Origin: Myxococcota bacterium
GTDB lineage: Bacteria; Myxococcota_A; Polyangia; Polyangiales; Houyiibacteriaceae
Length of the DNA stretch: 64,000 bases
Direction: 5' to 3'
Assembly (NCBI GenBank): GCA_028284955.1
Contig: JANQQS010000005.1
Location: forward strand, 70,007-134,006
Below, piece by piece: positions 42,313 to 64,000 of this stretch (positions are counted from its first letter, which is position 1; every line of letters starts with the position of its first letter). The notes below the pieces were generated by a model. It saw only the letters and a program-made list of their open reading frames with translations, had not been told where the DNA came from and made no database searches. The position numbers and the translations under genes are program-made.

Positions 42313-44364
42313 GTGGTTGGTTGGTACGCCTGTTGTCCGGTTGCTTCGCCTCGCTTGTGGAGGTCTGACGTGAACGATGTATCGAAGGTTTTTCCAGAAG
42401 CCGCGCGGAGCCACAGCATTGCTTGTCGATCGTGGCGGCGGTTGGTCAATGACGGGAGCGCACTGCTCGCGCTAAACATGATTCTTGCAGGCTGCGGTGG
42501 GGCCCGTTGTCCAGATGGACGCATGTTTTTGGATGGTAGATGCTCATGCGGCGAAGGACTGGTCGACGTAGACGACCAATGCCTCTCGGCCGATGGAGGT
42601 ATGAATTCAGACGCGCAACCAATCGAACCGCCCGCTTCTGATGTGGTCGTGCGATTTCCTTGGAACGGGTACGCGACCGGCAGCATCCACGCGGCCGGTG
42701 AACGCACGGGTGATTCCGCGCCGATGACCAATCCTCTGCGCCCTAAGTTTCTCTGGGAGCAGGTGGATGATGCGGTGTTCTACCAGTTTCAGGCAGATGA
42801 TTCATGCGATACCGCAGCGTTCGCGGAATGCGCATTTGAAAGCCCGGAGCTCGATACACAAGTTGCTGAGTCTTCCGAAGACGCTCCCTCAGGAGACATC
42901 CCGGAGTCGACCCTTGGTTTCATTCCGGATGAAGAGCTGCCTGTGGAGGAGAGAACCGAGGCACCGGTGGGCACGCGCTACTACTGGCGCGTGCGCGCGT
43001 GCACCGAAGAAGATGTGTGTTCGGCGTGGAGCCGTGTGCGCTATCTGAATGTGGGTCGATTGCCGAATGACTACGACGGCGACGGGTTCAGCGATGTGGT
43101 GGCTGGAGCGCCGGATGGACAGAGCACCACGAGAGCCGCGGAAAACGGTGAGGGCATCGTGCAAGTTCACTACGGGCTCAGCTCCGGCATGCTCTCTTCG
43201 ACGCAGGACCTGCTGCTCGACAACCCCGTGGATCAGATGGACGGTGCGTTCGGAAGATCCGTGTCAGAAGCAGGTGACGTGAACGGCGACGGCTTTGCTG
43301 ATCTCATTGTGGGGGCGCCCAGCCAATCCAACGGTGCAAACGGAGAAGGTGTTGCATACGTATTTCTGGGCTCGGAATCTGGTCTTTCTGAAGAGCCTGA
43401 TCTGATTTTGGACAACCCAGAAAACCAAGCAGGTGGCGGTTTTGGCAGCGCGGTCGCGACCGCCGGCGATATCAACGGGGACGGCTTTGCTGATGTCTTG
43501 GTCGGAGCGCCTTTTCAGGACGACGCTTTTTCGGCACAAGGGAAGGTATTCCTCTATTCAGGCTCAGCGAATGGGCTGATCACCGAACCGGCCCGTTCGC
43601 TGGTGAGCCCCACGGCGGCAGAGCGCGCGGAGTTCGGAGGGAGCCTGTCAAGTGCCGGCGATGTCGACGGGGACGGCTATCCGGATGTCGTGATAGGCCA
43701 CTCCCGAGACGCCTCGGATGAGATTGATCCTCCCGTCTTCGTTTTTCATGGGAGCCCGAACGGTTTGTTGGATGAACCAAGCACCACGATGATGCTTCCT
43801 GAGCAAACACCTACTTCTCAGAACTTCGGAACGGTATCCCGCGCAGGAGACGTGAACGGCGATGGATACGGAGACATCACCGTCGGGCTTTTCGTCTATC
43901 ACGGAGGCCCAACCGGTATTGGAACTGTCCCCGCTGCAGACGCATCCGCAGAACTGCGAGAACGCTACGTCCAATTTGCGTCTACCAGCGGAGACTTCAA
44001 CGGCGATGGGTTTCACGACGTACTGATGATCATCGGCCGCTTTCCTTCGTTTCGCGTTACCGCCTTCTTCGGTTCCACTGCTGGAATTGATCTGTCATCT
44101 TTTCAGGATATTCCCCCGCCCACCGATTCGCAGTATGTATCTGCCGGCTCCGGCATTGGAGATATCAACGGCGATGGGTTCAATGACATTGTGTTGGGAG
44201 ACCCTATTTACGGACCTCCTCCGGGCAGCTCCGCGATTAACGTAGGTCGCGCTCACGTATTTCTAGGCTCTTCGACCAGCATCAACACCGTCGCGAGCAG
44301 CACACTCGAAAATCGAGGTGTTCGAATCCTAGATCGCGCGCTTCTCGGATTTAGCGTCCGCTAA
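42313..44364 (+). CDS. FG-GAP repeat lipoprotein, paralog B (divergent from A)
   Basis: LAGC; same domain order and shared motifs VRFPWNG, VGRLPxDYxGDGFSD; start uncertain. Confidence 0.9.
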   Translation: MVGWYACCPVASPRLWRSDVNDVSKVFPEAARSHSIACRSWRRLVNDGSALLALNMILAGCGGARCPDGRMFLDGRCSCGEGLVDVDDQCLSADGGMNSDAQPIEPPASDVVVRFPWNGYATGSIHAAGERTGDSAPMTNPLRPKFLWEQVDDAVFYQFQADDSCDTAAFAECAFESPELDTQVAESSEDAPSGDIPESTLGFIPDEELPVEERTEAPVGTRYYWRVRACTEEDVCSAWSRVRYLNVGRLPNDYDGDGFSDVVAGAPDGQSTTRAAENGEGIVQVHYGLSSGMLSSTQDLLLDNPVDQMDGAFGRSVSEAGDVNGDGFADLIVGAPSQSNGANGEGVAYVFLGSESGLSEEPDLILDNPENQAGGGFGSAVATAGDINGDGFADVLVGAPFQDDAFSAQGKVFLYSGSANGLITEPARSLVSPTAAERAEFGGSLSSAGDVDGDGYPDVVIGHSRDASDEIDPPVFVFHGSPNGLLDEPSTTMMLPEQTPTSQNFGTVSRAGDVNGDGYGDITVGLFVYHGGPTGIGTVPAADASAELRERYVQFASTSGDFNGDGFHDVLMIIGRFPSFRVTAFFGSTAGIDLSSFQDIPPPTDSQYVSAGSGIGDINGDGFNDIVLGDPIYGPPPGSSAINVGRAHVFLGSSTSINTVASSTLENRGVRILDRALLGFSVR

Positions 44365-49341: not shown

Positions 49342-49872
49342 CTATTCGATGATGAAGTAGACCACGGGAATGGCGAAGATGCCCAGAAGTAGCCCACAGA
49401 AAAGCGTCAAGAAGAAGTGTTTTACGGTAGTTCCTAGCGAGAGACGACCTTCGGAGCGGCGTAGCAAAAGCCACGCGCTCGCGGTGGCAACGGCCACACA
49501 AATACTCACCACGATGCCCGACGCTTGCACCCAGCAATCAGGGCAATGGGCAAACGCCGTGCGCGGAATGAGCCAGAGTGCCGCGACGTAGACACCAGCC
49601 ACGGCGATCACGCCGCTGGTACCTTTGGAGGCGATATCACCTTGGCTACCGAACGTCGTGCCTTCCAGCGCAACGGGCTGACCATTGATCTTGACGGCCT
49701 TGGAGTAGCCCTTGGGTGAAAGACCGCTGCGGCCAACGTTGGGCAGCGGAGTCGGCACAAAGGGCGCCGGAGGCCCCGGCATCTTGCACACATTCGGCGT
49801 CGTCGCCGCCGCTACGCCGTTCGAGCCTTTGGTAACTGGAGTCTTCGGGCCGTTGATGGTGACCTTGCCCAT
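49342..49872 (-). pseudogene. Truncated DUF4150 (PAAR-like) N-terminus fused in frame to a small membrane protein
   Basis: First ~87 aa near-identical to 52992-53984; breaks at ASKGTSG, then three hydrophobic helices. Confidence 0.7.
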
Positions 49873-49982: not shown

Positions 49983-52091
49983 TCAACCGCGCTGAAACTT
50001 CGAGCCTTTGGCACGACGGGTTTTCTTGCGCTCGGCTCGGAACGCGCGCACGGCGCTGACAAGGAATCGAATTTGTTCGCGTCGATCGACTACACCAGCG
50101 TCATGAAGCTCAGTTAGCGACGACGCCAGGCAAAGCAGGTAGGATAGTGAACTCGTGTTCGCGTCGTAGCTGCAAGGGATTTCGGGGAACGTCACGCGCT
50201 CTCCGGCGCGAACGCCATAGAGACGATTGCGAACTCCGCCTGGCCAAAGCACTTCCACAACTCCTCTCTGGGCATGCCCCATGCCGAAAGACGCGATCAA
50301 ACTATCCTGCGACGCGTAGCTCGATCCTCCGAGCACTGGCGCCATGACGGCCTGGCCTCCCTTGGGTTTGAACGCTACCACCGCACCGATGCCGTCTCTA
50401 TTTGCTTTTCCGTGTCGTGTTAGCCCGGCGCCACCGACTAGTTCAACCTGCGCCCATTGATTGTGATTGTCCGCGCTGTTGATTTCGACCGAAAGCGTAC
50501 CATCAGGAAAAACCAACCCATTCCAAGTAAACATGAACGTGCTTGGGTCGCCGAACACTACATCGCCGAGAGGAGTGAACGTCGGAACGATGCGAGCGTC
50601 GACGTCAAACTCGCCGCCAAATGTCGGTACCCCTACGAGCGGCAATGGCTCTGGGATATCGAAGTTTGAAACGGAGACGATGTCGACAAAACCATCATTG
50701 TTCAAATCACCAACCGCCATTCCATGCACGGTTCGCCGATTGTGGTCGGTTGACCCAGCCAGCGCGTCTACATCGCGAACGAAGTTCGCGCTCCCGTCGT
50801 TGCTCCAAACAACCCCTGGCGATGTCTCGACGAACGGGCCTGCGTCCAAACCACCATGAAAGACGATATCGGTGTCGCCGTCGTTGTCGTAGTCGAATGA
50901 CGACGTTCCCCAACCAAACGGGCTATATACTCGACCGTCACTCTCGCTATCTGTGAAAAACCCATCGTCCTGTTGCAAGAACCATCGGGAGTCTAGGTTG
51001 TATACGCTCGACAACTCCGGCGGCACACCCTGCACCGCGCCCGCAAACGGGCCAAAGTTCGTGACGAACAGATCAAGCGTGCCGCTTCGGTCGTAATCAC
51101 CAAACGCGAGCCCCATCCAGGTTCCAGCTTTCGCCATTCCCTTCTCCGAAGTCACGTTGGTGAAGTAGCCAGTCCCATCGTTTTCAAACAACTGAAGAAA
51201 GCCGCGGTCGATACCCCCCGCCACCGCTGGAGGAAACCCCGCCTGGTCGTCGGCTTGGACGATATCGACATCTCCATCCAAATCGTAGTCCACCAAGGAA
51301 ACCGCCCACGTAATTGTGTTGCTCCCAGGAGGTGCACCCGGTGACCGGTATAGATCGAGAATGCCCGACGACTCAGACACATCTGCGAATCGGTTGCGTC
51401 CTACATTGAGCAACAGCTGATTGGGTTGAATCCCTTCAAACGGCTCGACGAAGATCTGCGCTTGCTGGCTTTGGTCGAACACGTTTGCCACGAAAATATC
51501 GAGCAACCCATCTCCATTGACATCACCCATCGCGCACGAACTTGAATGAGAAAAGCCGGCCGCCCCCGCCGGAGCGGTCACATCGACAAACATGCCACCT
51601 TGGTTCTCATAGAGACGATTGCTCCCGAACGTCGACAGCACCATCAAATCAGGATCGCCATCGTTGTCCAAGTCGCCATAGCAAACGCCGGAAGAGTCCT
51701 GCTCGATGGCATCGACTCCAACATCGGCGGCGACGTCGACAAACTGAACAACACCGGTCTGAACAAACTGATTGGCGTAAAGACTATTCGCAGCGCCCGG
51801 ACCGTTTGTGACGTAGATGTCAAGGTCGCCATCGCTGTCGTAATCAAAAACAGCGACTCCCGGCGCACCGCGACTCTTCGTTGGCGACGCTACCAACGCG
51901 TCGAATGTGAACAATGGCAATTGCTTTTGTGCTTGCCAAATAGCCTCACTAGCCGACGGCGCACGACGGTACGTCACACCGGCTTGATCGCCGACCACAA
52001 TGTCGTCGAACACGACCCCCTGCGCATACGTGACCCACGGCGACACAAGAACAAGCGCAGCGGAGAAACCGCTTTTGACTCGTACATCCAT
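49983..52091 (-). CDS. CRTAC1-family protein (FG-GAP/VCBS repeats + ASPIC/UnbV)
   Basis: FDYDSDGDLDIYV repeats; NRDGIGAVV..GGSSYASQ..FGMG..VEVLWPGG. Confidence 0.92.
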   Translation of the reverse strand: MDVRVKSGFSAALVLVSPWVTYAQGVVFDDIVVGDQAGVTYRRAPSASEAIWQAQKQLPLFTFDALVASPTKSRGAPGVAVFDYDSDGDLDIYVTNGPGAANSLYANQFVQTGVVQFVDVAADVGVDAIEQDSSGVCYGDLDNDGDPDLMVLSTFGSNRLYENQGGMFVDVTAPAGAAGFSHSSSCAMGDVNGDGLLDIFVANVFDQSQQAQIFVEPFEGIQPNQLLLNVGRNRFADVSESSGILDLYRSPGAPPGSNTITWAVSLVDYDLDGDVDIVQADDQAGFPPAVAGGIDRGFLQLFENDGTGYFTNVTSEKGMAKAGTWMGLAFGDYDRSGTLDLFVTNFGPFAGAVQGVPPELSSVYNLDSRWFLQQDDGFFTDSESDGRVYSPFGWGTSSFDYDNDGDTDIVFHGGLDAGPFVETSPGVVWSNDGSANFVRDVDALAGSTDHNRRTVHGMAVGDLNNDGFVDIVSVSNFDIPEPLPLVGVPTFGGEFDVDARIVPTFTPLGDVVFGDPSTFMFTWNGLVFPDGTLSVEINSADNHNQWAQVELVGGAGLTRHGKANRDGIGAVVAFKPKGGQAVMAPVLGGSSYASQDSLIASFGMGHAQRGVVEVLWPGGVRNRLYGVRAGERVTFPEIPCSYDANTSSLSYLLCLASSLTELHDAGVVDRREQIRFLVSAVRAFRAERKKTRRAKGSKFQRG

Positions 52092-52991: not shown

Positions 52992-53984
52992 CTAAATTTG
53001 AATTACTTGGAGCTTACCAGGAGGCATACCCAACCCTCCGGCAAGTTTCCTGATTTGCTGCTCTGCTTTGTCATGACCACCTGGAATCTTGTAGATCACA
53101 CCCATGTCAGCATTTCGAGCGAGCATCACATTGCGCTTCATCTGTCTTCTATTGCGGCCGGTCTCATCCTCGCTCTTTGCTGGATAGAAATCCGCTCCGC
53201 TCTTGGCTTCAACCGCATGCATGGTGCCGCTTCGATCCTGACCGACATGATCGATTTCGGCTCCCATAGGCGCTCCGCAGTGTTTGCAAGAATGCGTCAC
53301 CTTGTGGTCATTCCCAGTCGACAAACAACTGCGCGACTCGCCGTGGGCGCGTTTCATCTCGCCTTCGGCCCGCAAGATCTCCGGCTCATTATGTTTCGCC
53401 GCCGCGTGCTCGTGGCGACCGCCAGGGCTCCGGTCACGAGCAAGCTGGTTTCTCCGATCTTTGAACTCTTCATCCGTCGGCGGACAATACGGCTCCCCTC
53501 CCTCTTCATGCCCAGGACGTGGATCCGCCTGGGACGCAGTCCCGTATCCGGGCTCCTGCACGATGCCCATCATCGTCGCCGCGTTCGGCGGGCTACCTCC
53601 GGGCCCGCAGTTGTTGAGCATCGGGTCGCCTAGCAAGTGCACCCGCTTGCCTTCGATTTTGACGTTCATCGAACCGGGACCGATGAACTTCGTGATGCCA
53701 TGCGCCGCGGAAGACACGATCCCGCCGCCAGTACCTTTAGAGGCGACATCACCTTGGCTACCGAATGTCGCGCCTTCTAGCGCAACGGGCTGACCATTGA
53801 TCTTGACGGTCTTGGAGTAGCCCTCGGGTGAAAGACCGCTGCGGCCAACATTGGGCAGCGGAGTCGGCACAAAAGGCGCGGGAGGCCCCGGCATCTTGCA
53901 CACGTTCGGCGTCGTCGCCGCCGCTACACCATTCGAGCCTCTAGTAACCGGAGTTTTCGGGCCGTTGATGGTGACCTTGCCCAT
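52992..53984 (-). CDS. DUF4150 (PAAR-like) polymorphic toxin with C-terminal PD-(D/E)XK-type nuclease
   Basis: PNVCKMPGPPAPFVPTPLPN..GSMNVKIEGK..DPMLNN; toxin EIDHV..VEAKSG with CKHC. Confidence 0.87.
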   Translation of the reverse strand: MGKVTINGPKTPVTRGSNGVAAATTPNVCKMPGPPAPFVPTPLPNVGRSGLSPEGYSKTVKINGQPVALEGATFGSQGDVASKGTGGGIVSSAAHGITKFIGPGSMNVKIEGKRVHLLGDPMLNNCGPGGSPPNAATMMGIVQEPGYGTASQADPRPGHEEGGEPYCPPTDEEFKDRRNQLARDRSPGGRHEHAAAKHNEPEILRAEGEMKRAHGESRSCLSTGNDHKVTHSCKHCGAPMGAEIDHVGQDRSGTMHAVEAKSGADFYPAKSEDETGRNRRQMKRNVMLARNADMGVIYKIPGGHDKAEQQIRKLAGGLGMPPGKLQVIQI

Positions 53985-54659: not shown

Positions 54660-56333
54660 ATGTTGGAGCAAGAGGTGGTCAGGCGGTGGCCGATTCCCCT
54701 GACCGAGGGCGGCAACAAAAATATTGAGATCAAAAACAGCGACCGGCTATTCATCGTCGGGGCAAATGGCACGGGGAAGTCGGCCCTGATTCAACACGGG
54801 CTGGAGAGACTCGGAAAACCGATCCGCCGGATGTCGGCTCATCGTCAGAACTGGATGGTGTCCAGCCACATTGAGCTTAACTCTCGTTCTCGGCGCGAGA
54901 TGGAGACCCGCCTCCACCAGAGAGATGTTCAGCACGAGGGTCGCTGGAAGGATGACCAAGCTGGCCAGCGGCTCGCAGCAATTCTGTTCGACCTGGTCGC
55001 AGCAGAGAATGAACGGTCTCGTCGCGTCACCGAGCTCATCGACGCCAAGAAAGCCGATGCGGCAGTAAAGCAAGCCGCCGATACCCCGTCGCCATTCTTG
55101 AAAATCAACGACCTGCTGGCAGCGGGGAACTTTAGTGTCAGGCTCCGGGCAAAGAGGGGGGAAGAGATACTGGCTGAACATCGGGACGGGCAGCTTTTCG
55201 GCATGGCAAAGCTCTCGGATGGGGAAAGGAACGCCGCGATCCTGGGTGCAACGGTGCTCACCGTGGATCCCGGCACACTTCTTCTGATTGACGAGCCTGA
55301 GCGCCACCTGCACCGCTCCATCATCGAGCCATTTCTCACAGCGCTCTTTGACTGTCGCCCCGACTGTCCGTTCATCGTTTCCACACATGAGTTGTCGCTT
55401 CCTGTGGCGGCGAAGGACGCAAGGGTTCTGCTTCCCCGAGGCTGCGAGTGGTCGGGTGAGAGTGTGCATTCTTGGACGTTGGATGTGTTAACGGCAGGGG
55501 CCGAACTACCGGACGACCTTCGGCACTCAATCCTCGGCTCTAGGCGCAAGATCCTCTTCGTGGAAGGCGAGCACAGCAGCCTGGACTTGCCCGTCTACGA
55601 AGCCCTCTTTAACGACGTGTCCGTGGTTCCGAAGGGTGGTTGTTCCGAGGTGATCCGAGCGGTGAAAGGGCTGCGGTCCGCTGAGAGCCTGCACTGGGTC
55701 GAAGCCACGGGCCTGATTGATCGGGATGACCGAGAAGAGAAGGAACTGTCCTCTCTGCGTGATGGTGGCATCCACGGGCTCAACGTGCATTCGGTTGAGT
55801 CCCTCTACTTCTCCAAGCCAATGAGGGTTGCCGTAGCGAAGCGGCAGGCTGAAACTTACGATGTCGATCCTGACGATATGCTGAAGCAGGCCGAGGAAGC
55901 GGCGATGAAGGAGCTAGGCCAGCTCGAGACAAAGAAGCACCTCAGCGCCCGCAGGATCGAGCGCAAAGTGAGAGATGCCGTGATGTCACAGATCCCTGGC
56001 TGCAAGGAGATCAAGGGTGGCACAGGCGCTCCGATCACGATCCAGGTTGACTCGGGGCTGCCGGAAGAAATCGACCGCTACGAGGCGCTGCTTCAGGCCA
56101 AGGATTTCGACGGCCTCATTGCCCGCTACCCGGTAAGGGAGACGAACGCGCTGACCAACCTCGCGGCCAAGCTGAAGTTCAGGCCCAAAGAGAATTACGA
56201 GCAGGCAGCGCGGGCGCAGCTTGCCAAAGATGATGAGCTAGTAGCTGAGTTGCGGAAGCTGCTCGGCACTCTCACCGAGGCGCTGACGGGACAGTCGAAA
56301 GCCGAGGTCGATTCTTCTCCGTCCCCTCCGTAG
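54660..56333 (+). CDS. ABC-type ATPase fused to TOPRIM/DUF4435-like domain (fused PARIS-like defence protein)
   Basis: GANGTGKS, LSDGE, LLIDEPERHLH, STH; ILFVEG..SLD, GGC, GLIDRD. Confidence 0.82.
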   Translation: MLEQEVVRRWPIPLTEGGNKNIEIKNSDRLFIVGANGTGKSALIQHGLERLGKPIRRMSAHRQNWMVSSHIELNSRSRREMETRLHQRDVQHEGRWKDDQAGQRLAAILFDLVAAENERSRRVTELIDAKKADAAVKQAADTPSPFLKINDLLAAGNFSVRLRAKRGEEILAEHRDGQLFGMAKLSDGERNAAILGATVLTVDPGTLLLIDEPERHLHRSIIEPFLTALFDCRPDCPFIVSTHELSLPVAAKDARVLLPRGCEWSGESVHSWTLDVLTAGAELPDDLRHSILGSRRKILFVEGEHSSLDLPVYEALFNDVSVVPKGGCSEVIRAVKGLRSAESLHWVEATGLIDRDDREEKELSSLRDGGIHGLNVHSVESLYFSKPMRVAVAKRQAETYDVDPDDMLKQAEEAAMKELGQLETKKHLSARRIERKVRDAVMSQIPGCKEIKGGTGAPITIQVDSGLPEEIDRYEALLQAKDFDGLIARYPVRETNALTNLAAKLKFRPKENYEQAARAQLAKDDELVAELRKLLGTLTEALTGQSKAEVDSSPSPP

Positions 56334-56509
56334 TACCCCGATGGCCTACGCATACGAGCCAATCTCCGTCTGAAAATCCTTCCTCAAGAACACCGAATCC
56401 CAGACTCCACCCCGGCCATCACCTTGGCTCTGAGCACCAGGGCCGAAGCAGTTTTGGAAGATGGTCGGACGTCCCCCCTGGCTCAACTTTGCCGATGTGG
56501 AGACGAGCG

Positions 56510-56632
56510 GATACGGCTCCTCCTTCGCTCACCACCAGGCCCGAAGGGCAAGAAGCCGATCCGCATGCTGCAATGAAGACGGAGGTCATACTCAATGCAA
56601 GCGATGTGGTTGGTCGCTGGTCGTTGCGTTCC
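56510..56632 (-). pseudogene. Truncated third copy (5' end) of the Cys-rich lipoprotein
   Basis: LALSMTSVFIAACGSASCPSGLVVSEGG matches N-terminus of 56639-57568. Confidence 0.7.
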
Positions 56633-56638
56633 ATTCTA

Positions 56639-57568
56639 TCAAAACGGATTGCAGGTTTCCGGGTCGCCATCACAAGCTGCCCCGTTTCGGCAATCATTTG
56701 ATCCAGCACATTCATACGTGCAGGCAAAGGTCGATCCCATTTGCCGACACACTCCATCATCGAGCCCGGGGACACCACAGTCATCGGTGGCCGTATCCTC
56801 GGCGCATGCGTCGCGAAAACTGAGAATCGCTTCGCACGTTGTGTCTGCCTCAGCGATCACACAATAGAGCGCCTCAACTCCACCCAAACTCGTGCGCATG
56901 CGTTGAGCAAACTGCCGCGGGGGACAATTGGCGCTAGGATCGTCAGTGGCTGTTTGATGGCTTGCAAGGTCGAGCATGCAGTAGTTACCTCGGCTTGCTC
57001 CGTTGAATTCGAGTGGCACACAGCGCCGAACCCCCACTTCATCGGTGGTTATGCACTCTTCGTCGGACACGCATGGCTGACAAAAACCGAGCGTTCCCTG
57101 GCACTCAAACGTGCTCAGATTGCACATCCGGTTTCCGATAGGCCGACCGACTTCGATGGGAGGACAAGAGGTCTCTTGAGTCGCTTCGGTACATTCGACA
57201 CAAACCCCCGTCCCGGTCTCACATACCGGCGTATCCGAAAACCGAGCGCACTGGTCGTCATCCATACACGGTGAGCACGTGTTGCTCTCCGTATTGCATC
57301 TCGGTGCCGCAGGGTCCGTACATTGCGTGTCTTGCACGCATCCCACGCAGCGGTTGCTCGTCTCATCGCACACCGGCGTATCCCCGCTGCAGCCTCCGCA
57401 CGGGCCCGCGTCCGCTTCCCCATCAGGTCGTGCATCAGCGCCTGCATCGAGCGCGAGGCACCACCCGCCTTCGCTCGCCACGAAGCCTGAAGGACACGAG
57501 GCAGATCCGCATGCGGCGGCGAAGAGGAAGATCATACTCAGAGCGAGCAACGTGATCGATTGAGGCAT
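56639..57568 (-). CDS. Cys-rich lipoprotein, tandem paralog 1
   Basis: AAAC; CGGCSGDTPVCD..RCVGC..CVECT repeats. Confidence 0.85.
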   Translation of the reverse strand: MPQSITLLALSMIFLFAAACGSASCPSGFVASEGGWCLALDAGADARPDGEADAGPCGGCSGDTPVCDETSNRCVGCVQDTQCTDPAAPRCNTESNTCSPCMDDDQCARFSDTPVCETGTGVCVECTEATQETSCPPIEVGRPIGNRMCNLSTFECQGTLGFCQPCVSDEECITTDEVGVRRCVPLEFNGASRGNYCMLDLASHQTATDDPSANCPPRQFAQRMRTSLGGVEALYCVIAEADTTCEAILSFRDACAEDTATDDCGVPGLDDGVCRQMGSTFACTYECAGSNDCRNGAACDGDPETCNPF

Positions 57569-57577
57569 CCTAATTCG

Positions 57578-58504
57578 TCAAAACGGATTGCAGGTTCTCG
57601 GTGCATTGTCGCAAGCTACCCCATCCGGGCAATCACTTGGTCCAGCGCATTCATAAGTACAGGCAAATCCACGCCCCATTTGCCGACACACCCCATCATC
57701 AAGCCCGGAGGCGCCACAGTCCTCGGCGACGGTATCCTCGGCGCATACCGATCCAAAACTGAGAACTGCTTCACAAGTTGTATTCGCTTCTCGAACCACG
57801 CAATAGAGCGCCTCGACTCCACCCAAACTCGTGCGCATGCGTTGAGCAAACTGTTGCGGAGGACAATTGGCGCTGGGATCGTCCAGGGCTGCTCGATGGC
57901 TTTCAAGATCGAGCATGCAGTAGTTGTCTCGTGGCATTCCGTCGAACTCGAGAGGAATACAACGAAACGTGCCAACTTGGTCGTTGCTCAGGCACTCCTC
58001 ATCCGATACGCACCGCTGGCAGAAGCCGAGCGTACCCTCGCACTCAAACGTCTCCACATTGCACACCCGGTTTACGGCAGGCCTGTCGTTTTCGATGGGG
58101 GGACATGCCGCTTCTTGAGTCGCTTCGGTACATTCGACGCACACTCCGGTGCCCGTCTCGCACACCGGCGTATCCGAAAACCGAGCGCACTGGTCGTCAT
58201 CCATGCAAGGGGAGCAAGTGTTGCTCTCGGTGTTGCACCTTGGCGCCGCAGGGTCCGTACATTGCGTATCTTGCAAACACCCGACGCATCGGTTGGTTGC
58301 TTCGTCGCAAACGGGCGTATCCCCGCTGCATCCTCCGCAAGGGCCTGCGTCCGCTTGCCCATCAGTCTGCGCATCAGCGCCAGCATCGAGCGCGAGGCAC
58401 GCTGGGTCGTTAGGTTTGGATTCGCAGAAAGGGACGCTTTCGGTGGGGCAAGCGGAGAGGAGGACAACGGGAACGAGAAAGGCGAAGGCGGGTTTAATGG
58501 TCAT
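57578..58504 (-). CDS. Cys-rich lipoprotein, tandem paralog 2
   Basis: LSAC; core near-identical to paralog 1, different N-terminus. Confidence 0.85.
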   Translation of the reverse strand: MTIKPAFAFLVPVVLLSACPTESVPFCESKPNDPACLALDAGADAQTDGQADAGPCGGCSGDTPVCDEATNRCVGCLQDTQCTDPAAPRCNTESNTCSPCMDDDQCARFSDTPVCETGTGVCVECTEATQEAACPPIENDRPAVNRVCNVETFECEGTLGFCQRCVSDEECLSNDQVGTFRCIPLEFDGMPRDNYCMLDLESHRAALDDPSANCPPQQFAQRMRTSLGGVEALYCVVREANTTCEAVLSFGSVCAEDTVAEDCGASGLDDGVCRQMGRGFACTYECAGPSDCPDGVACDNAPRTCNPF

Positions 58505-58752
58505 GATAAGTGGCTCTCTTACTGCGGGCTTCAGGGGCTGTTACGTTGGGTAGTCGAAGGTCGTTGATTCACCAATGCGCTCTGGGGGTGATCAACCGGA
58601 CCTACTTTACTTTTCTGGCCTCGGTGGCCTTATCGGGTCAAGGCGACGCCAGTTGCGTTCTATTTTGCATTTCGCGCATCGATGGCTCTATTAGCGCCCA
58701 AACCCCTGATATGTCAATGGAAAGCCGTGCGCCGGCGAAGGCTTCGATGGGT

Positions 58753-59196
58753 TTATTCCACCCAGAGTGCTTCCTTCGGAACGGCACGCACGATGTCGTT
58801 CCATGCGCCTTCGACGTCAATCGGGTGAGTCGAGACTTCGCTGAGCCATTTCAGAGCTTTTTTAGGCGCGGAGAATACTTCTTCGCGAAAGGGTTTGTCC
58901 GTGAACCAGTTGAGCGCGGTAATGACGCCTCGCATTGGGATGGAATCGGTCACGAACGCGTGCGCAACGAGCCCCGGCAAGCCACGCTCAGATTTGAACA
59001 CGTCGTTGAGCGCGCGGCGTTGCACGGCAGACGGCGGCTGTGCCTGATACGTAATCGTGAGCGCGACCTCCCCTTGTTTGGGGTTGGTTCCGATCGCCCG
59101 GATATGCTCAACGAGCTCAGCCCATTCCGAATCGCTCGCCGTTCGATACTGATATACCCACGACAACCGGGTATCTCGATTCAACCACATCGCCAT
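58753..59196 (-). CDS. STAS/SEC14(SpoIIAA)-like small protein, copy C
   Basis: PPSAVQRRAL..AHAFVTDS..RGVITALNWF..VFSAPKKALKWL. Confidence 0.78.
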   Translation of the reverse strand: MAMWLNRDTRLSWVYQYRTASDSEWAELVEHIRAIGTNPKQGEVALTITYQAQPPSAVQRRALNDVFKSERGLPGLVAHAFVTDSIPMRGVITALNWFTDKPFREEVFSAPKKALKWLSEVSTHPIDVEGAWNDIVRAVPKEALWVE

Positions 59197-59247
59197 ATAA
59201 AAACTCCACTACTCCGCTTCGCCCAAACACACCTGCGTACTACGCGC

Positions 59248-59310
59248 TTACTCCACCCAGAGCGCCTCTTCTGGCACCGTGCGCACGATTTCATTCCACA
59301 CGCGTTCGGT
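59248..59310 (-). pseudogene. Duplicated 3' tail of copy B
   Basis: ERVWNEIVRTVPEEALWVE* repeated. Confidence 0.7.
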
Positions 59311-59401
59311 GCATCACGCCGATGCGTCATCCTAGAAGATTCGCCCCATTATCGATCCCCATCAGGGAAAGTTGCGACCCGCGCATCGATTTTATTGAGA
59401 A

Positions 59402-59851
59402 TCACGCCTCCTGAGGTGATTCCCACAGCAAGTCTTCGTCCACGGCACGGACCACAGCGTTCCATACCCGCCGTACGTCCAATCCGGACTTCTTCTCAGC
59501 TAGCCAAACCAGCCCACCTATCGGATCGTCGAAGACTTTTTCTTCGAACTTCTTCGCGGAAAACCAACCGAGCGCGGTCAACACTCCGCGCGTCACCCGA
59601 GAGTTTGAAACGAAGGCATGGGCCGCTAGACGTCGCGCGCCCGATCGTTCGAGCAACTCTGCAAGCCTTTTTCTCTGAATGGCGGAGGGCGCGTCAGCCT
59701 TGTAGGTGACCGTATAGACCACCTTTCCCGTACGATTCTCAGAAAGAAACGCGCTAAGCCCTTCAATGAACGCATCCCAATCCGAGGACGCGACCCCACC
59801 GCAATGGTATGACCAAAAACAGCCGTCTACTTCTCCACTCCAAATCGACAT
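59402..59851 (-). CDS. STAS/SEC14-like small protein, copy A
   Basis: APSAIQRKRL..AHAFVSNSRVTRGVLTALGWF. Confidence 0.78.
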   Translation of the reverse strand: MSIWSGEVDGCFWSYHCGGVASSDWDAFIEGLSAFLSENRTGKVVYTVTYKADAPSAIQRKRLAELLERSGARRLAAHAFVSNSRVTRGVLTALGWFSAKKFEEKVFDDPIGGLVWLAEKKSGLDVRRVWNAVVRAVDEDLLWESPQEA

Positions 59852-59942
59852 TGCAGACCTCTCGCGCCTTCCGATTCAGACGTATCGCCATACCGAAAAC
59901 CCCGCTGCTTCGCTTCGCCCAAACACACAGGGACCAGACAAC

Positions 59943-60386
59943 TTACTCCACCCAGAGCGCCTCCTCCGGCACCGTGCGCACGATTTCATTCCACACACGC
60001 TCCGTGTCGATGGGTTGCGCCGAGACTTCGCTCAGCCATTTCAACGCGTTCTTCGGGCTTGAGAACACTTCTTCGCGAAAGGGCTTCTTGGTAACCCAGT
60101 TGACCGCGGTGATGACTCCGCGGATGCGCGCCGAATCAGTGACGAACGCGTGGCCAGCCAATCGCGAAAAACGGCGCTCGTTCAAAAAAGCATCCGAGAG
60201 AGACCGACGCTGCAACGCGGAAGGGGTCGTTGTTTTGAATGCAATAGTGAGTGCCACACCCCCGTCACCCACCGTTTTCCCAGTCTCGCGAACGAACTCT
60301 ACGTACCCCGACCAGTCGTCTTCACTACGAGGGCCGTGATGGTACGACCAAGAACAGCTCGAGGTAACGTTGAACCATATGCTCAT
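59943..60386 (-). CDS. STAS/SEC14-like small protein, copy B
   Basis: TPSALQRRSL..GHAFVTDSARIRGVITAVNWV. Confidence 0.78.
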   Translation of the reverse strand: MSIWFNVTSSCSWSYHHGPRSEDDWSGYVEFVRETGKTVGDGGVALTIAFKTTTPSALQRRSLSDAFLNERRFSRLAGHAFVTDSARIRGVITAVNWVTKKPFREEVFSSPKNALKWLSEVSAQPIDTERVWNEIVRTVPEEALWVE

Positions 60387-60524
60387 GCGACGATGTCCTA
60401 GTCTGAGTGCGCCGCGGATACCGTACTATGACAGGTACTGTGCGAACGCTTGAGACCTTATCGTGCACATTCGCTGCGAGTTGCGAAAAAAAGCAACCTC
60501 GTTGGCCCTACCCGCCAACCCTAT

Positions 60525-60822
60525 TGCACGAAAAATCGACCGAGCGCGGTCAACACTCCGCGCGTCACCCGAGAATTTGAAAATGAAGGCTTGGGCCGCC
60601 TGACGTCGCGCGCTCGATCGTTCGAGCAGCTCCGTGAGCCTTTTTCTCTAGATGGCGGAACGCGCATCAGCCTTGTAGGTGACCGTATAAACCACCTTTC
60701 CGTGCGATTTCAGAGAGAAACGCGCTGTGCCCCTCGACGCACACATCCCAATCCAAGGACGCGACCTCATCCCAGTGGTACGGCCAGAAACAGCTGTCTA
60801 CTTCTCCACGCCAAATCGACAT
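60525..60822 (-). pseudogene. Frameshifted, truncated duplicate of copy A
   Basis: ATG at 60822 MSIWRGEVDSCFW..; frameshift after FLSE; CAG>TAG stop. Confidence 0.8.
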
Positions 60823-60899
60823 TGCAAACTTCTCGCGCCTCCAGACTCACACGCGCTTGCCTGCGTAATCACCCCTGCGTCGATCCGCAAGGTGTGAAA

Positions 60900-61655
60900 T
60901 CAGGCGCGTATGAGCTCTTGTTTGGCAATGCGCAAACAATCGCCAAGAAATCCCGTATACGCCTCAAGCGCTTTGCTGCCTGTATCAGCAAGAACTTCGA
61001 CGGCGTCTTCATTTTTCGCAAGGAACGCCTCCAGCTCTCGCTCGTTGTACGCGGTGTGGCCGACGTCGAGTGCAACGTGCTCTTCAATGAAACTCATGCA
61101 GGAAGCGATATCGTCTCCCAGTTTTCTCTTGAGCTGGCCAACCAGCTTAGGACCCAAGGATACAGAAAGTCCTTCTATTTCATACTCGATAGCGATCTGG
61201 GCAAACGGGTGGTCGCTTCGAATCACTGACTCGTGGAGCTCGATATAGTCTTTCATCGAATCGGTTGGTGGCTGAGCTACGAGCGGTGCCACAACGAGCT
61301 TTGGTTCGTACTTCTCGTTCCAGCGTTTGGTCAATCGCTCCGCATCTTCGAGCATCATCTTGTGGTGGCCTGCTTCGTGGGAGCTATGGCGTATTAGACC
61401 GTTGCCTAGTTCTGCGTGGCCGAGCTCTACGCAACGTTGGCCGGCACGAGAAATCCACTTGTCGACCGGTTCGGTCATCTGAACGCCCAGAGCACTGAAC
61501 TGAATCAAGAAACCCTCCAGGAGCTTAGGAGAAGTCTTCTTGTTCAGTATCTCGCGAATTGCCTCATCGCGAAGGACCTGCTCCCGCGCCGCACGCACTC
61601 GTGGTTCGTACGCATTGCGGATTCTCTCGTGCTCTTTCTTCATGCCTTCCCCCAA
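60900..61655 (-). CDS. Heme-oxygenase-like diiron oxidase (HDO; CADD/PqqC/UndA-like fold)
   Basis: Candidate ligands HEAGH, EYEIE, FIEEHVALDVGH; helical, 251 aa. Confidence 0.82.
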   Translation of the reverse strand: MGEGMKKEHERIRNAYEPRVRAAREQVLRDEAIREILNKKTSPKLLEGFLIQFSALGVQMTEPVDKWISRAGQRCVELGHAELGNGLIRHSSHEAGHHKMMLEDAERLTKRWNEKYEPKLVVAPLVAQPPTDSMKDYIELHESVIRSDHPFAQIAIEYEIEGLSVSLGPKLVGQLKRKLGDDIASCMSFIEEHVALDVGHTAYNERELEAFLAKNEDAVEVLADTGSKALEAYTGFLGDCLRIAKQELIRA

Positions 61656-61690
61656 TCAATCATCGTGATTTTCAAAACAGCTTGTTCAGT

Positions 61691-63421
61691 TTACGCGACC
61701 GGTGTCTGCGCCGCGTCCGCGCGCGTAGCTTTCATTTCCCCAAAACGAAAATCAACGAAATCTTCGTAACATCTGAGGGCTCGTTTAGACCAGATCACAG
61801 ATCCCATAGTCTCCGCCAAACGCAAGCGTGAACCATCTCCCACATTGACGGTTTTCGGTGGCGCAACAATGAGCGGCACTTCAATTTCCTGGCGCGTGTA
61901 GAACGCTTCGATCGCCCGTAGAACACGCGCGTGGTTTTCGGGTGGAAGCTCTATTCCTCGATCGTTTAGATAGAGCTGAGCTTGGTTGAATATGTTGAAC
62001 AGAGATAGTGCCTTGGAGCCAGTCTCGCACAACACGAAACCTATCTTTTCTCCGTCCATGACGACCGTTTTTACGTTCCGGAAACGATTGTATTTCCGAG
62101 CGAGCGACGTAGGGTGAATGAGGGGTCCATTCAACTGCGCTTCGGATAGGTCAAACGCATCGATCGCCAGCTGGGGAAGCACCTGTCGCATCCGCGCGAC
62201 CACGCTTGCCAGATCTTCCGCGCTCGCTTCTTCTAGGTATACGTCGTCGCATGATTTGATCTCGCAGTCTGGTTCATCGTGCGCTTCGAATCGGTCCCAC
62301 TTCACCAATACGGAGTCGCTCGGCTCAGTCCATTGAACAAACGACTCAAAGTAGGCCTGGTGCCACGGCCGCGATCGATTGAAATACCCATACAAGTACG
62401 TGGGCTCTGTTCCCAGCAGCCTCGGCCACACAGCGAAATATCGATAGAGCGCTTGCCGACATTCCATCGATTCATCGTGGCCGCGAAGCGTTGCCAGTTG
62501 ATGCCCCAGCCACGCCTTCGAATACCCCCGGGTGACCGACACGTGACCGAGCAACTCGTCATCACGGGAACGATAGAGCACATCCGTGGACACCTTGTCG
62601 GACCAAGACGCGCCGTACCACTGAGGGCTGGGGTTACAGCTACTTCGCAGATCAAGGTAGCCCGAACGATCAAACAACTTCTCGATCGCTGTGGAAGTAA
62701 ACGAGCGGCGAGGCGCGAGCGAAGGAAACAACTGCGCCTGATAAGCCCTTGCCAAAGCAGTGTCGCTGCCATTAATCTCGGAAAGTCGAACTCCGCATTC
62801 ACCGTCCGATTGATGTGCCAGCGTTGCGAAGCATTCGACACGCTCAGATCGGCCGAGCTGCAGCGTCGCTTCCAGCGTAGTCTCGGCCGGCGGCACAAGA
62901 CTACGACCCACACGGAATCGAGCACCCGAAGGACTCAGATCAACAACTTCCCATTCGCCTCTCGAACCGGAACCGGAGATCGACGACCACTGGATTTGCA
63001 ACGAAACGCTCGCATCATGAATCGCAACTCTGCGATCCTGTCGACGGCACACGCAGTGAACCGAGCTTGGGCTGCGCAATAGAACCTGTCCGTTTCGGTC
63101 GAGATCGAACACGCCACCAATTTCGAAACGAACCCCATGCAAGTCGGCGATCACCTTCCCTTTAAGGGGAAAGGACGAAGAGAGTTCGTCAAATGAAGAG
63201 CCAAGCGTCTCAAGAGCAAGCTGCTTGGTCGAGCTGGCATAGCTGGCGCATCGAACTGGTAGAAGTAGACGCTGTGTCTCCAGCAACGCTTCGCAGCGCT
63301 GCTCGGAGCAACGCGTAAGAATCATTTCGACATCACTCTGCGAACGCAGAGGAAAAACCCCACCATACCTCGCTGCGGTCGCTCCCAACTCTTTGACCCC
63401 CCAAAAAGCTGCGGGCACCAC
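61691..63421 (-). CDS. PilZ-domain protein with C-terminal GNAT-like acyltransferase region
   Basis: RRQDRR and DLSPSG c-di-GMP motifs; LLGHVSVTRGYSKAWLGHQLA..YLYGYF GNAT-like strands (fold call is inference); start uncertain. Confidence 0.72.
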   Translation of the reverse strand: MVPAAFWGVKELGATAARYGGVFPLRSQSDVEMILTRCSEQRCEALLETQRLLLPVRCASYASSTKQLALETLGSSFDELSSSFPLKGKVIADLHGVRFEIGGVFDLDRNGQVLLRSPSSVHCVCRRQDRRVAIHDASVSLQIQWSSISGSGSRGEWEVVDLSPSGARFRVGRSLVPPAETTLEATLQLGRSERVECFATLAHQSDGECGVRLSEINGSDTALARAYQAQLFPSLAPRRSFTSTAIEKLFDRSGYLDLRSSCNPSPQWYGASWSDKVSTDVLYRSRDDELLGHVSVTRGYSKAWLGHQLATLRGHDESMECRQALYRYFAVWPRLLGTEPTYLYGYFNRSRPWHQAYFESFVQWTEPSDSVLVKWDRFEAHDEPDCEIKSCDDVYLEEASAEDLASVVARMRQVLPQLAIDAFDLSEAQLNGPLIHPTSLARKYNRFRNVKTVVMDGEKIGFVLCETGSKALSLFNIFNQAQLYLNDRGIELPPENHARVLRAIEAFYTRQEIEVPLIVAPPKTVNVGDGSRLRLAETMGSVIWSKRALRCYEDFVDFRFGEMKATRADAAQTPVA

Positions 63422-63481
63422 CAGGATCTTCGCGGAACGTACAACGATCCTTAATCCATGTGGTTACTCACCGTTCAAGGA

Positions 63482-63510
63482 CGGATACGCCTGATAGCGC
63501 TATCTGTCAA
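63482..63510 (-). promoter_or_regulatory. Sigma70-like promoter with palindromic operator in the spacer
   Basis: TTGACA-17 bp-TATCCG; GATAGCGCTATC palindrome at 63493-63504; second half-site CTGATAGCG at ~63528-63536. Confidence 0.45.
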
Positions 63511-63849
63511 CGTATCGAGGTGGTCACCGCTATCAGCAAGTAGACAACGATCCGGGACAAAGCCCATCGATACAGTGGAACATTGTCAAAAGAGGTCGTT
63601 TCGATCGCTCGTTGGTGATGTGACAGATGATGCGATCATTTGTCGGTCGCGGGCTTCGAGGCCGCACACGCCATCTCCAACGTCCGCAAATCTGACACCT
63701 TCAGTTTCTTCGAAAGTCGACGTTGAGTTTATCTCGGTCCCTCGAGCCAAATGTCACGATGCGGACGTGCACTTTGTGGCAATGCCACCGCTCTCGCAAA
63801 CCTGTCGCTCCTGGATTCCTAGCGGATTCACCGGTCCCGGTGCCGGAGT

Positions 63850-64000
63850 TTAGCCAGCTTCCTTTTCCGAAACCGAACGCCGAACACAGTCAACGCTCGC
63901 GACGATTCGGTCCGCGTCGCCCTGAAACGGGAACGGGTCGTGATTCGCAATCCACTGTGCTCCGTCTTCGACGGTGCTGACGATATTCATCGGATAGGGA
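63850..64000 (-). CDS. C-terminal end of another STAS/SEC14-like protein (partial)
   Basis: Manual translation ..PYPMNIVSTVEDGAQWIANHDPF..DRIVASVDCVRRSVSEKEAG*, parallels PF..VFS....LxWL of copies A-C. Confidence 0.55.
   Translation of the reverse strand, partial: PYPMNIVSTVEDGAQWIANHDPFPFQGDADRIVASVDCVRRSVSEKEAG

Follow-up and report, generated by a model that had tools for sequence, protein, structure and literature searches.

A YcgR-like PilZ protein with a double GNAT domain, its diiron oxidase partner and an array of STAS-fold genes in a Myxococcota bacterium

Several of the components considered here are already known: fusions of PilZ domains to enzymes, among them the PilZ-PilZ-acetyltransferase PixB of Myxococcus xanthus, heme-oxygenase-like diiron oxidases (HDOs), double acyltransferases of the GNAT (Gcn5-related N-acetyltransferase) superfamily, and STAS proteins. 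In a stretch of 64,000 nt from a Myxococcota bacterium (contig JANQQS010000005.1; G000:C211:70007-134006 in our numbering of genome and contig; hereafter the window), a gene encoding a 576-aa protein with a PilZ domain and a double GNAT domain lies next to an HDO gene and a group of small STAS-fold genes. The contig ends 1.7 kb past the window end. Few enzymes are directly switched by cyclic diguanosine monophosphate (c-di-GMP), and PilZ-acetyltransferase fusions such as PixB have no known substrate. HfsK of Caulobacter is reportedly a c-di-GMP effector of the GNAT type.

PixB (MXAN_2604) resembles the 576-aa protein in that it comes from a myxobacterium and joins PilZ to a GNAT-type acetyltransferase domain at the C-terminus. 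Binding of c-di-GMP by PixB has been demonstrated in vitro, and the authors proposed that c-di-GMP raises the acetyltransferase activity (passages of PMC8316039). The RxxxR arginines of PixB are at residues 121 and 331 and its second motif lacks Ser; an HDO partner is not mentioned in the text passages of that paper (PMC8316039). Single deletions of 24 PilZ genes of M. xanthus caused motility or developmental defects only in the case of plpA, pixA, pixB and pkn1 (passages of PMC8316039). HDOs share a ligand set of E/H, E and HxxxDxxH, to which the SznF/RohS subgroup adds an optional seventh Glu ligand. The characterised HDOs mostly act on small molecules, and BesC, SznF, AetD and SktA act directly on free amino acids (passages of PMC13133933). 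Double GNATs carry their second fold as an insert between beta-6 and beta-7 of the first; their active site is located between the two halves, of which usually only one is active. The glycine N-acyltransferases have the double-GNAT fold as well, and HisAT and similar double GNATs use free amino acids (passages of PMC12219266).

The analysis defines a large unannotated family of 205 homologues whose enzyme domain lacks a Pfam model. The YcgR-like sensor with its double GNAT nearly always has a diiron oxidase as its neighbour or within the same chain, which makes for a concrete two-gene unit that is also present in the genetically tractable M. xanthus. We give an even chance to the reading that the two enzymes form a module that makes a small molecule under c-di-GMP control. 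A metabolite under c-di-GMP control and a hitherto undescribed HDO reaction might come to light with it, and variants with FeeM and GGDEF-EAL proteins in other phyla suggest a general theme. Neither the conserved pair of sensor-double-GNAT and HDO nor a pairing of HDO with FeeM was found in print in the main texts of a mostly open-access literature.

The sensor-acyltransferase protein and the diiron oxidase

An earlier note, made from the DNA sequence without database searches, had described a PilZ protein with intact RxxxR and DxSxxG motifs that is separated by 35 bp from an HDO. Both the coordinates and the motifs were borne out. The parts of the pair are as follows.

61691..63421, minus strand: 576-aa PilZN-PilZ-double-GNAT protein (AlphaFold2 pLDDT 90.8, pTM 0.91; 205 homologues at E ≤ 1e-3)
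63047..63364, minus strand: YcgR-N-like (PilZN) domain, residues 20-125 (Z 11.9 to the YcgR-N domain 5y6h over residues 19-126)
62762..63046, minus strand: PilZ domain, residues 126-220, with RRQDRR and DLSPSG (Pfam, 22.7 bits; fold matches to c-di-GMP-bound PilZ domains)
61706..62725, minus strand: double (tandem) GNAT-fold acyltransferase domain, residues 233-572 (fold matches; HisAT 9emd, Z 13.4)
60900..61655, minus strand: 251-aa heme-oxygenase-like diiron oxidase (Pfam PF14518, 27.6 bits; invariant ligand positions; 246 homologues)

The HDO gene is downstream of the PilZ-GNAT gene, and the gap between them (61656-61690) is 35 nt given a TTG start. A scan of 56000-64000 returned 0 promoters and 7 terminator-like sites, compared with a shuffle mean of 8.1, such that no signal rose above the shuffles.

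The predicted fold identifies the 576-aa protein as a probable YcgR-like PilZN-PilZ sensor fused to a double-GNAT acyltransferase. In the AlphaFold2 model, which was built from an alignment of 81 sequences, residues 19-233 resemble the two-domain c-di-GMP receptors YcgR, PP4397, MrkH and MotI (Z 10.8-12.3). Residues 19-126 correspond to the isolated YcgR-N domain, whole YcgR (5y6f) matches with Z 12.1, and the PilZ domain fits the c-di-GMP-bound PilZ structures of Alg44 (4rt0, 4xrn; Z 10.8-10.9). The RxxxR and DxSxxG motifs are likewise common to these receptors and to the 576-aa protein. YcgR, MotI, MrkH and PP4397 act through the motor or through DNA binding, whereas here the sensor module is joined to an enzyme domain. 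By sequence, residues 126-220 exceed the cut-off of the Pfam PilZ model (PF07238; 22.5 bits) marginally, and 28 of the 81 family members (81 of the 205 homologues, on which all family counts are based) match the model, with a best E value of 5.2e-13. Both motifs are intact in the 576-aa protein: RxxxR (R127-R131, within RRQDRR at 126-131) and DLSPSG at 161-166 (D161, G166). Among the 71 members that span this region, 64 retain RxxxR; D161 is conserved in 59/81 and G166 in 64/81.

The C-terminal part was proposed in the earlier note to be GNAT-like, and fold prediction agrees, with the addition that two GNAT folds form one unit. Residues 232-551 fit double-GNAT enzymes, the best being the histidine acetyltransferase HisAT/NAT16 (9emd; rmsd 4.5, 261 residues aligned). 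These matches were followed at Z 10.3-11.6 by 3tt2, VipF, the tandem GNAT of the clavulanate pathway, MAB_4324 and N-myristoyltransferases. Across HisAT, 3tt2, VipF and MAB_4324, 261-281 residues align. Residues 224-380 alone fit GNA1 (2vez, Z 10.4), and many single GNATs match at Z 10-12. The 576-aa protein thus has the tandem fold of HisAT/NAT16, glycine N-acyltransferases, N-myristoyltransferases, VipF and the clavulanate enzyme, but its identity to double-GNAT enzymes is 8-12% and, unlike the double-GNAT N-acyltransferases, it is fused to a c-di-GMP sensor domain.

Some 16 polar residues of the GNAT part are near-invariant in the 81-sequence family: R238, Y255, H293, S295, H307, Q308, Y326, Y346, H354, R377, R446, R448 (81/81), E466, S473, Y508 and E537. 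So dense a set argues for an active enzyme with a conserved predicted active site. A Q/RxxGxG/A acyl-CoA loop, expected after beta-4, was not seen by eye in either GNAT half or in the consensus. The earlier note had likened the enzyme to FeeM. The FeeM-type N-acyl amino acid synthases (PF21926) share the GNAT superfamily fold with the 576-aa protein, but they are single-domain proteins of ~200 aa, the Pfam FeeM model did not match, and hhalign against eight FeeM-like HDO neighbours gave a probability of 1%, such that the FeeM assignment did not hold by sequence and a sequence relationship is undetectable.

A word-based homologue search with the PilZ-GNAT protein yielded 2 matches, and exhaustive and genome profile searches were required. 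Of the 205 homologues that the exhaustive search returned at E ≤ 1e-3, 92 remained at E ≤ 1e-30; the alignments mostly run from about residue 90-130 to the end. The genome contains one full-length copy. Sequence searches of the PDB with PilZ-GNAT, HDO and STAS profiles gave no meaningful match, NCBIfam returned nothing for five proteins of the locus, and results from the ESM Atlas served as leads only. A second, distant double-GNAT protein is encoded in the same genome (G000:C184:67615-70014, plus strand; 799-aa frame, E 1.4e-19). In the family member P0036 (821 aa), a PilZ-double-GNAT carries a C-terminal SAM-dependent methyltransferase in place of an HDO.

The 251-aa protein resembles the HDOs UndA, BesC, SznF, RohS, AetD and CADD in having a sequence of the Haem_oxygenas_2 type (PF14518; E 3e-6, just below the cut-off of 28.9 bits) and the six ligand positions. 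Its homologues (n=246; 40-55% identity) are mostly unnamed proteins of Myxococcus, Corallococcus, Archangium, Polyangia and others, many of which carry a precomputed PF14518 assignment. In all 42 aligned HDO sequences E94, H97, E157, H193, D197 and H200 are invariant, and these are the six canonical ligand positions; their assignment to helices (E and H to core helix 1, E to helix 2, HxxxDxxH to helix 3) is based on motif spacing only. H90 and an acidic D/E65 are invariant in the same 42 sequences, and D/E65 could be a candidate for a seventh metal ligand. The 251-aa protein has no close solved relative.

Genomic linkage and exchange of the acyltransferase

Relatives of the HDO were collected from one public genome per species, and the best 80 of 182 loci were counted. 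In 66 of the 80 a protein that matches a profile of the double-GNAT domain (tGNAT) ends where the HDO starts, and 51 of these 66 also match the PilZN-PilZ profile. Seven of the remaining 15 were put to Pfam, which found a PilZ domain in 4. Fusions add to the picture. According to Pfam, 3 of the 81 family members have a C-terminal HDO (P0041, P0069, P0070), and with the HDO profile built here 5 of 6 long members examined are GNAT-HDO fusions, which adds P0029 and P0112. The sensor-GNAT/HDO pair is conserved in many myxobacteria, and the linkage is tight, ancient and sometimes covalent. The earlier note had put forward the co-occurrence of its three families as a check of its proposal; for the two enzyme families, co-occurrence is evident from the 66 of 80 loci and the fusions.

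Within the order, a profile search of genomes found PilZ-GNAT in 4 of 24 genomes from other families. An HDO with 42-54% identity immediately follows the PilZ-GNAT gene in three of the four; the HDO of the fourth, which is on a short contig, is a distant one. None was found by profile search in 36 genomes of the same family, hence the module is patchy in this family. The genome itself contains, by the profiles of this analysis, a single HDO, located in the window. A cytochrome P450 gene was noted near the PilZ-GNAT/HDO pair in 3 of 13 loci of the close subfamily (L041:2488-4038 and L080:8344-9573, called by Pfam, and L093:8350-9585, called by BLAST clustering).

M. xanthus AM003 contains a 758-aa tGNAT protein (L035:3725-6001) with the HDO gene directly downstream (6001-6753). 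A second double-GNAT protein of this strain, 693 aa in length (L145:3634-5715), has no HDO within ~4 kb, and both proteins possess an additional N-terminal PilZ-like segment. They differ from PixB in having the Ser of DxSxxG and in lacking arginines at 121 and 331. Searches of AM003 with the PilZ and Acetyltransf_1 families did not find PixB, which is at most a possible member of the PilZ-GNAT family. The candidates that were considered, a PilZ-DnaK protein, an Eis-like GNAT and a Pat-like enzyme, are not PixB.

In the 14 HDO loci without tGNAT, a GNAT of another kind adjoins the HDO in 8. Five of them exceed the cut-off of the FeeM model (N-acyl amino acid synthase; L056, L073, L084, L096, L105), L054 and L103 exceed that of Acetyltransf_5, and L048 is at the cut-off of Acetyltransf_1 with a weak FeeM match. 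The eight loci are from Acidimicrobiales, other Actinomycetota, one cyanobacterium and two Myxococcota metagenome-assembled genomes. The HDO thus keeps a GNAT as its partner, of one kind or another, and FeeM-type synthases occupy the same position beside orthologous HDOs as the GNAT of the window. FeeM uses acyl-ACP (acyl carrier protein) as the donor. In three of the eight loci, all from Acidimicrobiales, the next gene on the same strand encodes a GAF-GGDEF-EAL protein, which was seen in just these 3 of the 80 loci.

L084:7396-9267, same strand as the HDO and the FeeM-like GNAT: GAF-GGDEF-EAL gene
L096:7177-9294, same strand as the HDO and the FeeM-like GNAT: GAF-GGDEF-EAL gene
L105:7399-9273, same strand as the HDO and the FeeM-like GNAT: GAF-GGDEF-EAL gene

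The three products are 52-53% identical to each other. The pathway would meet c-di-GMP signalling in two unrelated ways, through a fused PilZ sensor and through an adjacent GGDEF-EAL protein. Taken together, the linkage in 66 of 80 loci, the fusions, the replacement by FeeM and Acetyltransf_5 proteins and the GAF-GGDEF-EAL genes support a c-di-GMP-linked synthesis of an acylated, oxidised small molecule.

In a tree of the HDOs obtained by a quick search, which places the window HDO with little certainty at the end of a long branch, loci cluster by partner type, and the well-supported branches force at least 2-3 partner changes. The HDO and PilZ-GNAT of a record titled Comamonas sp. KCTC 72670 (L046) are inside the Myxococcus clade of that tree (branch length 0.053), which suggests that the record is mislabelled or contaminated or that a recent transfer occurred.

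The STAS-fold genes around the pair

STAS proteins are classic protein-protein switches. The earlier note had listed, downstream of the HDO, three intact, one pseudogenised and one fragmentary paralogue of about 147 aa, all of which were recovered, and a probable family member upstream. The latter is real but distant. It is an open reading frame of ~180 aa, here called upSTAS, that has no Pfam match; the profiles of the 147-aa and upSTAS types hit each other, so that both belong to one superfamily. These genes are, like the PilZ-GNAT and HDO genes, all on the minus strand.

63850..64000, minus strand: 3' end (last ~50 codons) of upSTAS, a ~180-aa STAS-like gene read from its open reading frame; the rest is beyond the window and the whole is G000:C211:133856-134398
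~60400..60830, minus strand: pseudogene copy of the 149-aa paralogue, with indels, an in-frame TAG and truncation (DNA comparison)
59943..60386, minus strand: copy C, 147-aa STAS-fold paralogue (AlphaFold2 pLDDT 94.3; STAS 4xs5, Z 10.4)
59402..59851, minus strand: copy B, 149-aa STAS-fold paralogue (list of open reading frames and paralogue comparison)
59251..59322, minus strand: fragment of 72 nt that matches the last 21-24 codons of copy C (DNA comparison)
58753..59196, minus strand: copy A, 147-aa STAS-fold paralogue (list of open reading frames and paralogue comparison)

The other two intact paralogues are 56% and 39% identical to copy A. The pseudogene shares 87% DNA identity with the first ~295 nt of copy B, and the fragment 92% with the last 64 nt of copy C.

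The structure of copy C was predicted together with 30 relatives. Its best Foldseek match was the SpoIIAA-like DUF3478 protein 2q3l (E 1.6e-4), followed by anti-sigma antagonists, RsbS and SiaC. In a second structure search, STAS 4xs5 ranked ahead of 2q3l (Z 10.2) and the antagonists (Z 8.2-9.2); Sec14-type modules (NF1-Sec14, Sfh5, alpha-TTP) reached Z 7.9-8.2, over longer alignments and lower than the STAS matches. The STAS domain of YchM, which was solved with ACP, gave Z 7.8. Copy C thus shares the fold of the STAS/SpoIIAA-like proteins and has a weaker resemblance to the Sec14/CRAL-TRIO modules, and the earlier call of a STAS/SEC14 fold was a fair one, with STAS the better match. Copy C differs from the SpoIIAA-like proteins in that its Pfam score (PF11964; 15.9 bits, cut-off 25) is below the threshold, with no match at all for copies A and B, and in that the position of the phosphorylated Ser, at the start of helix 2, is variable: S56 is present in all three window copies, and S, N, T or G occurs there over the 30-sequence alignment. 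Unlike STAS partner-switch systems, the locus contains no partner kinase or phosphatase.

The two types of small gene are distributed differently. An upSTAS homologue adjoins the pair in 7 of 13 close-subfamily loci from different families, the window included; the others are L022, L023, L025, L024, L044 and L028 (one on each side). This type may be regarded as a facultative companion of the PilZ-GNAT/HDO module. Of 36 same-family genomes, none of which has PilZ-GNAT, 29 gave matches to the 147-aa profile; a single genome could have as many as 17, and the domain also occurs at the C-terminus of larger proteins. The neighbours of the best 147-aa relatives are heterogeneous and include Ser/Thr kinases, an RCC1 protein and a different PilZ protein. 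A word-based search with copy C found 2 matches, both on its own contig. In the genome under study, all 147-aa-type copies are confined to this locus, where they follow the HDO closely and in its orientation. With upSTAS counted, the locus holds 4 of the 5 STAS-like superfamily members that are intact in this genome. The 147-aa copies appear to be a local, recently duplicating and decaying expansion of that superfamily. The single other STAS-like gene of the genome (G000:C99:5474-6286, minus strand) is convergent with a gene for a 587-aa product that looks sigma-70-like by eye.

Of the three-family co-occurrence expected from the earlier note, the enzyme part was found, whereas a STAS-like neighbour accompanies the pair in just 7 of 13 close loci. 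Its assumption that the 147-aa paralogues belong with the enzymes, as receptors of their product, fared worse, since the family is widespread in genomes without PilZ-GNAT. By their distribution the small genes seem loosely tied to the enzyme pair, and the case for receptors is weak and partly contradicted. PAAR-like toxin genes 5-9 kb away prompted the idea that the array encodes immunity proteins. Position and fold make this improbable, as the array does not follow a toxin gene and its members have the STAS fold.

Proposed function, alternatives and surroundings

In the model that we favour, binding of c-di-GMP to the PilZ module would switch the acyltransferase on or off, by analogy with the model proposed for PixB (passages of PMC8316039). 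The double GNAT would N-acylate a small amine or amino acid, and the HDO, using its diiron centre and O2, would oxidise the acylated product; in an alternative order, the HDO would supply the amine or amino acid and acylation would follow. STAS-fold proteins might be accessory as a partner, carrier, receptor or regulator of the module or might recruit ACP. Of the possible product classes, an oxidised (hydroxylated, desaturated or decarboxylated) N-acyl amino acid or a related N-acyl amine appears the most likely, a proposal that we grade below the module itself and short of even chances. It is derived from the substitution by FeeM, from the best fold match, which is to an enzyme that uses a free amino acid, and from known HDO chemistry (passages of PMC13133933). 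The c-di-GMP-gated synthesis of an oxidised N-acyl metabolite, as the earlier note had it, thus gained from the GNAT fold, the PilZ motifs, the HDO ligands and the co-occurrence of the enzymes, and lost, by sequence, its FeeM-type synthase. Its N-acyl amino acid gained indirectly, in that related HDOs adjoin FeeM-type synthases and the best fold match is a histidine N-acyltransferase.

A number of observations weigh against a c-di-GMP-controlled synthase. The PilZ score is marginal and the strict (D/N)xSxxG motif is retained in just 26 of 71 family members. None of the Pfam and NCBIfam GNAT models matched the 576-aa protein at E ≤ 1, Acetyltransf_1 was matched by just 1 of 81 family members, and weakly (6.4e-4), and to these are added the acyl-CoA loop that was not seen by eye and the 1% probability of a relation to the FeeM-like neighbours. 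The HDO scores just under its Pfam cut-off, and its profile matches in the PDB are weak (E 0.13 for a TenA/Thi-4-like protein, E 0.51-0.66 for the CADD type). With regard to linkage, there are tGNAT paralogues without an HDO neighbour (L142/L145 in M. xanthus, G000:C184), PilZ-GNAT was not found in the 36 genomes of the same family, and upSTAS is missing in 6 of 13 close loci and in all loci of Myxococcaceae and Archangiaceae. If the M. xanthus counterparts are among the 24 PilZ genes deleted singly, they gave no motility or developmental phenotype.

The alternative to which we assign the most weight, quite possible and still short of probable, concerns the small genes. The 147-aa array, and perhaps upSTAS too, would be functionally unrelated to the enzyme pair and would represent a lineage-specific, multi-copy STAS-like family in a variable region, with partner-switch or protein-binding roles of its own. 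The abundance of the family in relatives that lack PilZ-GNAT, the varied neighbours, the occurrence as a C-terminal domain, the sigma-70-like neighbour of the remaining gene and surroundings that look variable (PAAR-like toxin genes, an AAA_21/DUF4435 ATPase, the contig end) all point this way. Arguing against it are the confinement of the 147-aa copies of this genome to one locus just downstream of the HDO and the adjacency of upSTAS to the pair in different families. An unlikely alternative, in line with what has been proposed for PixB or Pat-type enzymes, is that the double GNAT has a protein or other macromolecule as its substrate; the STAS-like proteins would then be targets or partner-switch regulators, and the HDO would modify something else or the acyl donor. 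Such a role would suit the switch function of STAS proteins, with anti-sigma antagonists and SiaC among the matches of copy C, and the presence of the protein-acting N-myristoyltransferases and VipF among the fold matches of the GNAT part; in addition, the substrates of GNATs cannot be read from sequence (passages of PMC8316039). It fits poorly with the strict pairing or fusion with an HDO, whose characterised relatives mostly act on small molecules (passages of PMC13133933), with the existence of other lineages in which FeeM-type acyltransferases, which act on small molecules, take the place of the partner, and with the lack of a STAS gene at most loci that have the pair.

There are two further alternatives. 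In one, the HDO would make a reactive or unusual amine or amino acid that the GNAT then N-acylates in a protective or tailoring role. The direct use of free amino acids by BesC, SznF, AetD and SktA (passages of PMC13133933) and by double GNATs such as HisAT (passages of PMC12219266) speaks for it, whereas the Pfam name of the family that includes the FeeM-type partners points to N-acyl amino acids made from ordinary ones; the data do not discriminate the order of the steps, and we regard this version as improbable. Little credence is also given to a PilZ module that has lost c-di-GMP sensing and now acts as a structural or protein-docking domain. The marginal Pfam score would agree with such a loss, as would the frequent replacement of the Ser of DxSxxG in relatives (S 31, T 17, A 10, G 9 of 81) and the observation that the acetyltransferase domain of PixB alone is sufficient during growth (passages of PMC8316039). 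Sensing is favoured by the retention of both motifs in the 576-aa protein and of RxxxR in most of the family, by the match of the two-domain fold to c-di-GMP-bound YcgR, PP4397 and MrkH, and by the GGDEF-EAL neighbour in FeeM-type loci, which ties the pathway to c-di-GMP independently.

An extension of the proposed c-di-GMP-controlled module reaches considerably further. GNAT and HDO might together synthesise an undescribed class of oxidised, lipo-amino-acid-like signals, and in several phyla this synthase would be connected to cyclic-nucleotide signalling. Direct gating of the synthesis by c-di-GMP via the fused PilZN-PilZ would be the form that this takes in Myxococcota; in Acidimicrobiales, the GAF domain of the adjacent GGDEF-EAL enzyme would sense the product; and in the lineage of the window, a diversifying array of STAS/Sec14-like proteins would serve as carriers or receptors. 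We consider this broad scheme doubtful, with a small chance of being correct as a whole.

Elsewhere in the window, open reading frames with Tox-PAAR-like domains are at 52992-53984 and 49342-49872, both on the minus strand (E 3.2e-15 and 9.4e-7, respectively), and small open reading frames downstream of them are possible immunity genes, such that the neighbourhood looks polymorphic-toxin-like. Three large proteins with FG-GAP / ASPIC-UnbV repeats are encoded at 40068-42044 (minus strand), 42313-44364 (plus strand) and 49983-52091 (minus strand). A 557-aa ATPase at 54660-56333 (plus strand) combines AAA_21 and DUF4435, which by Pfam name also occur together in OLD/AbiEii-like defence ATPases. 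A tandem of paralogous genes at 56639-57568 and 57578-58504 (both on the minus strand) encodes putative lipoproteins of 309 and 308 aa that are rich in Cys and had no match in Pfam or NCBIfam. Past the window, at the contig end, lies an open reading frame of 240 aa (G000:C211:134977-135699, minus strand).

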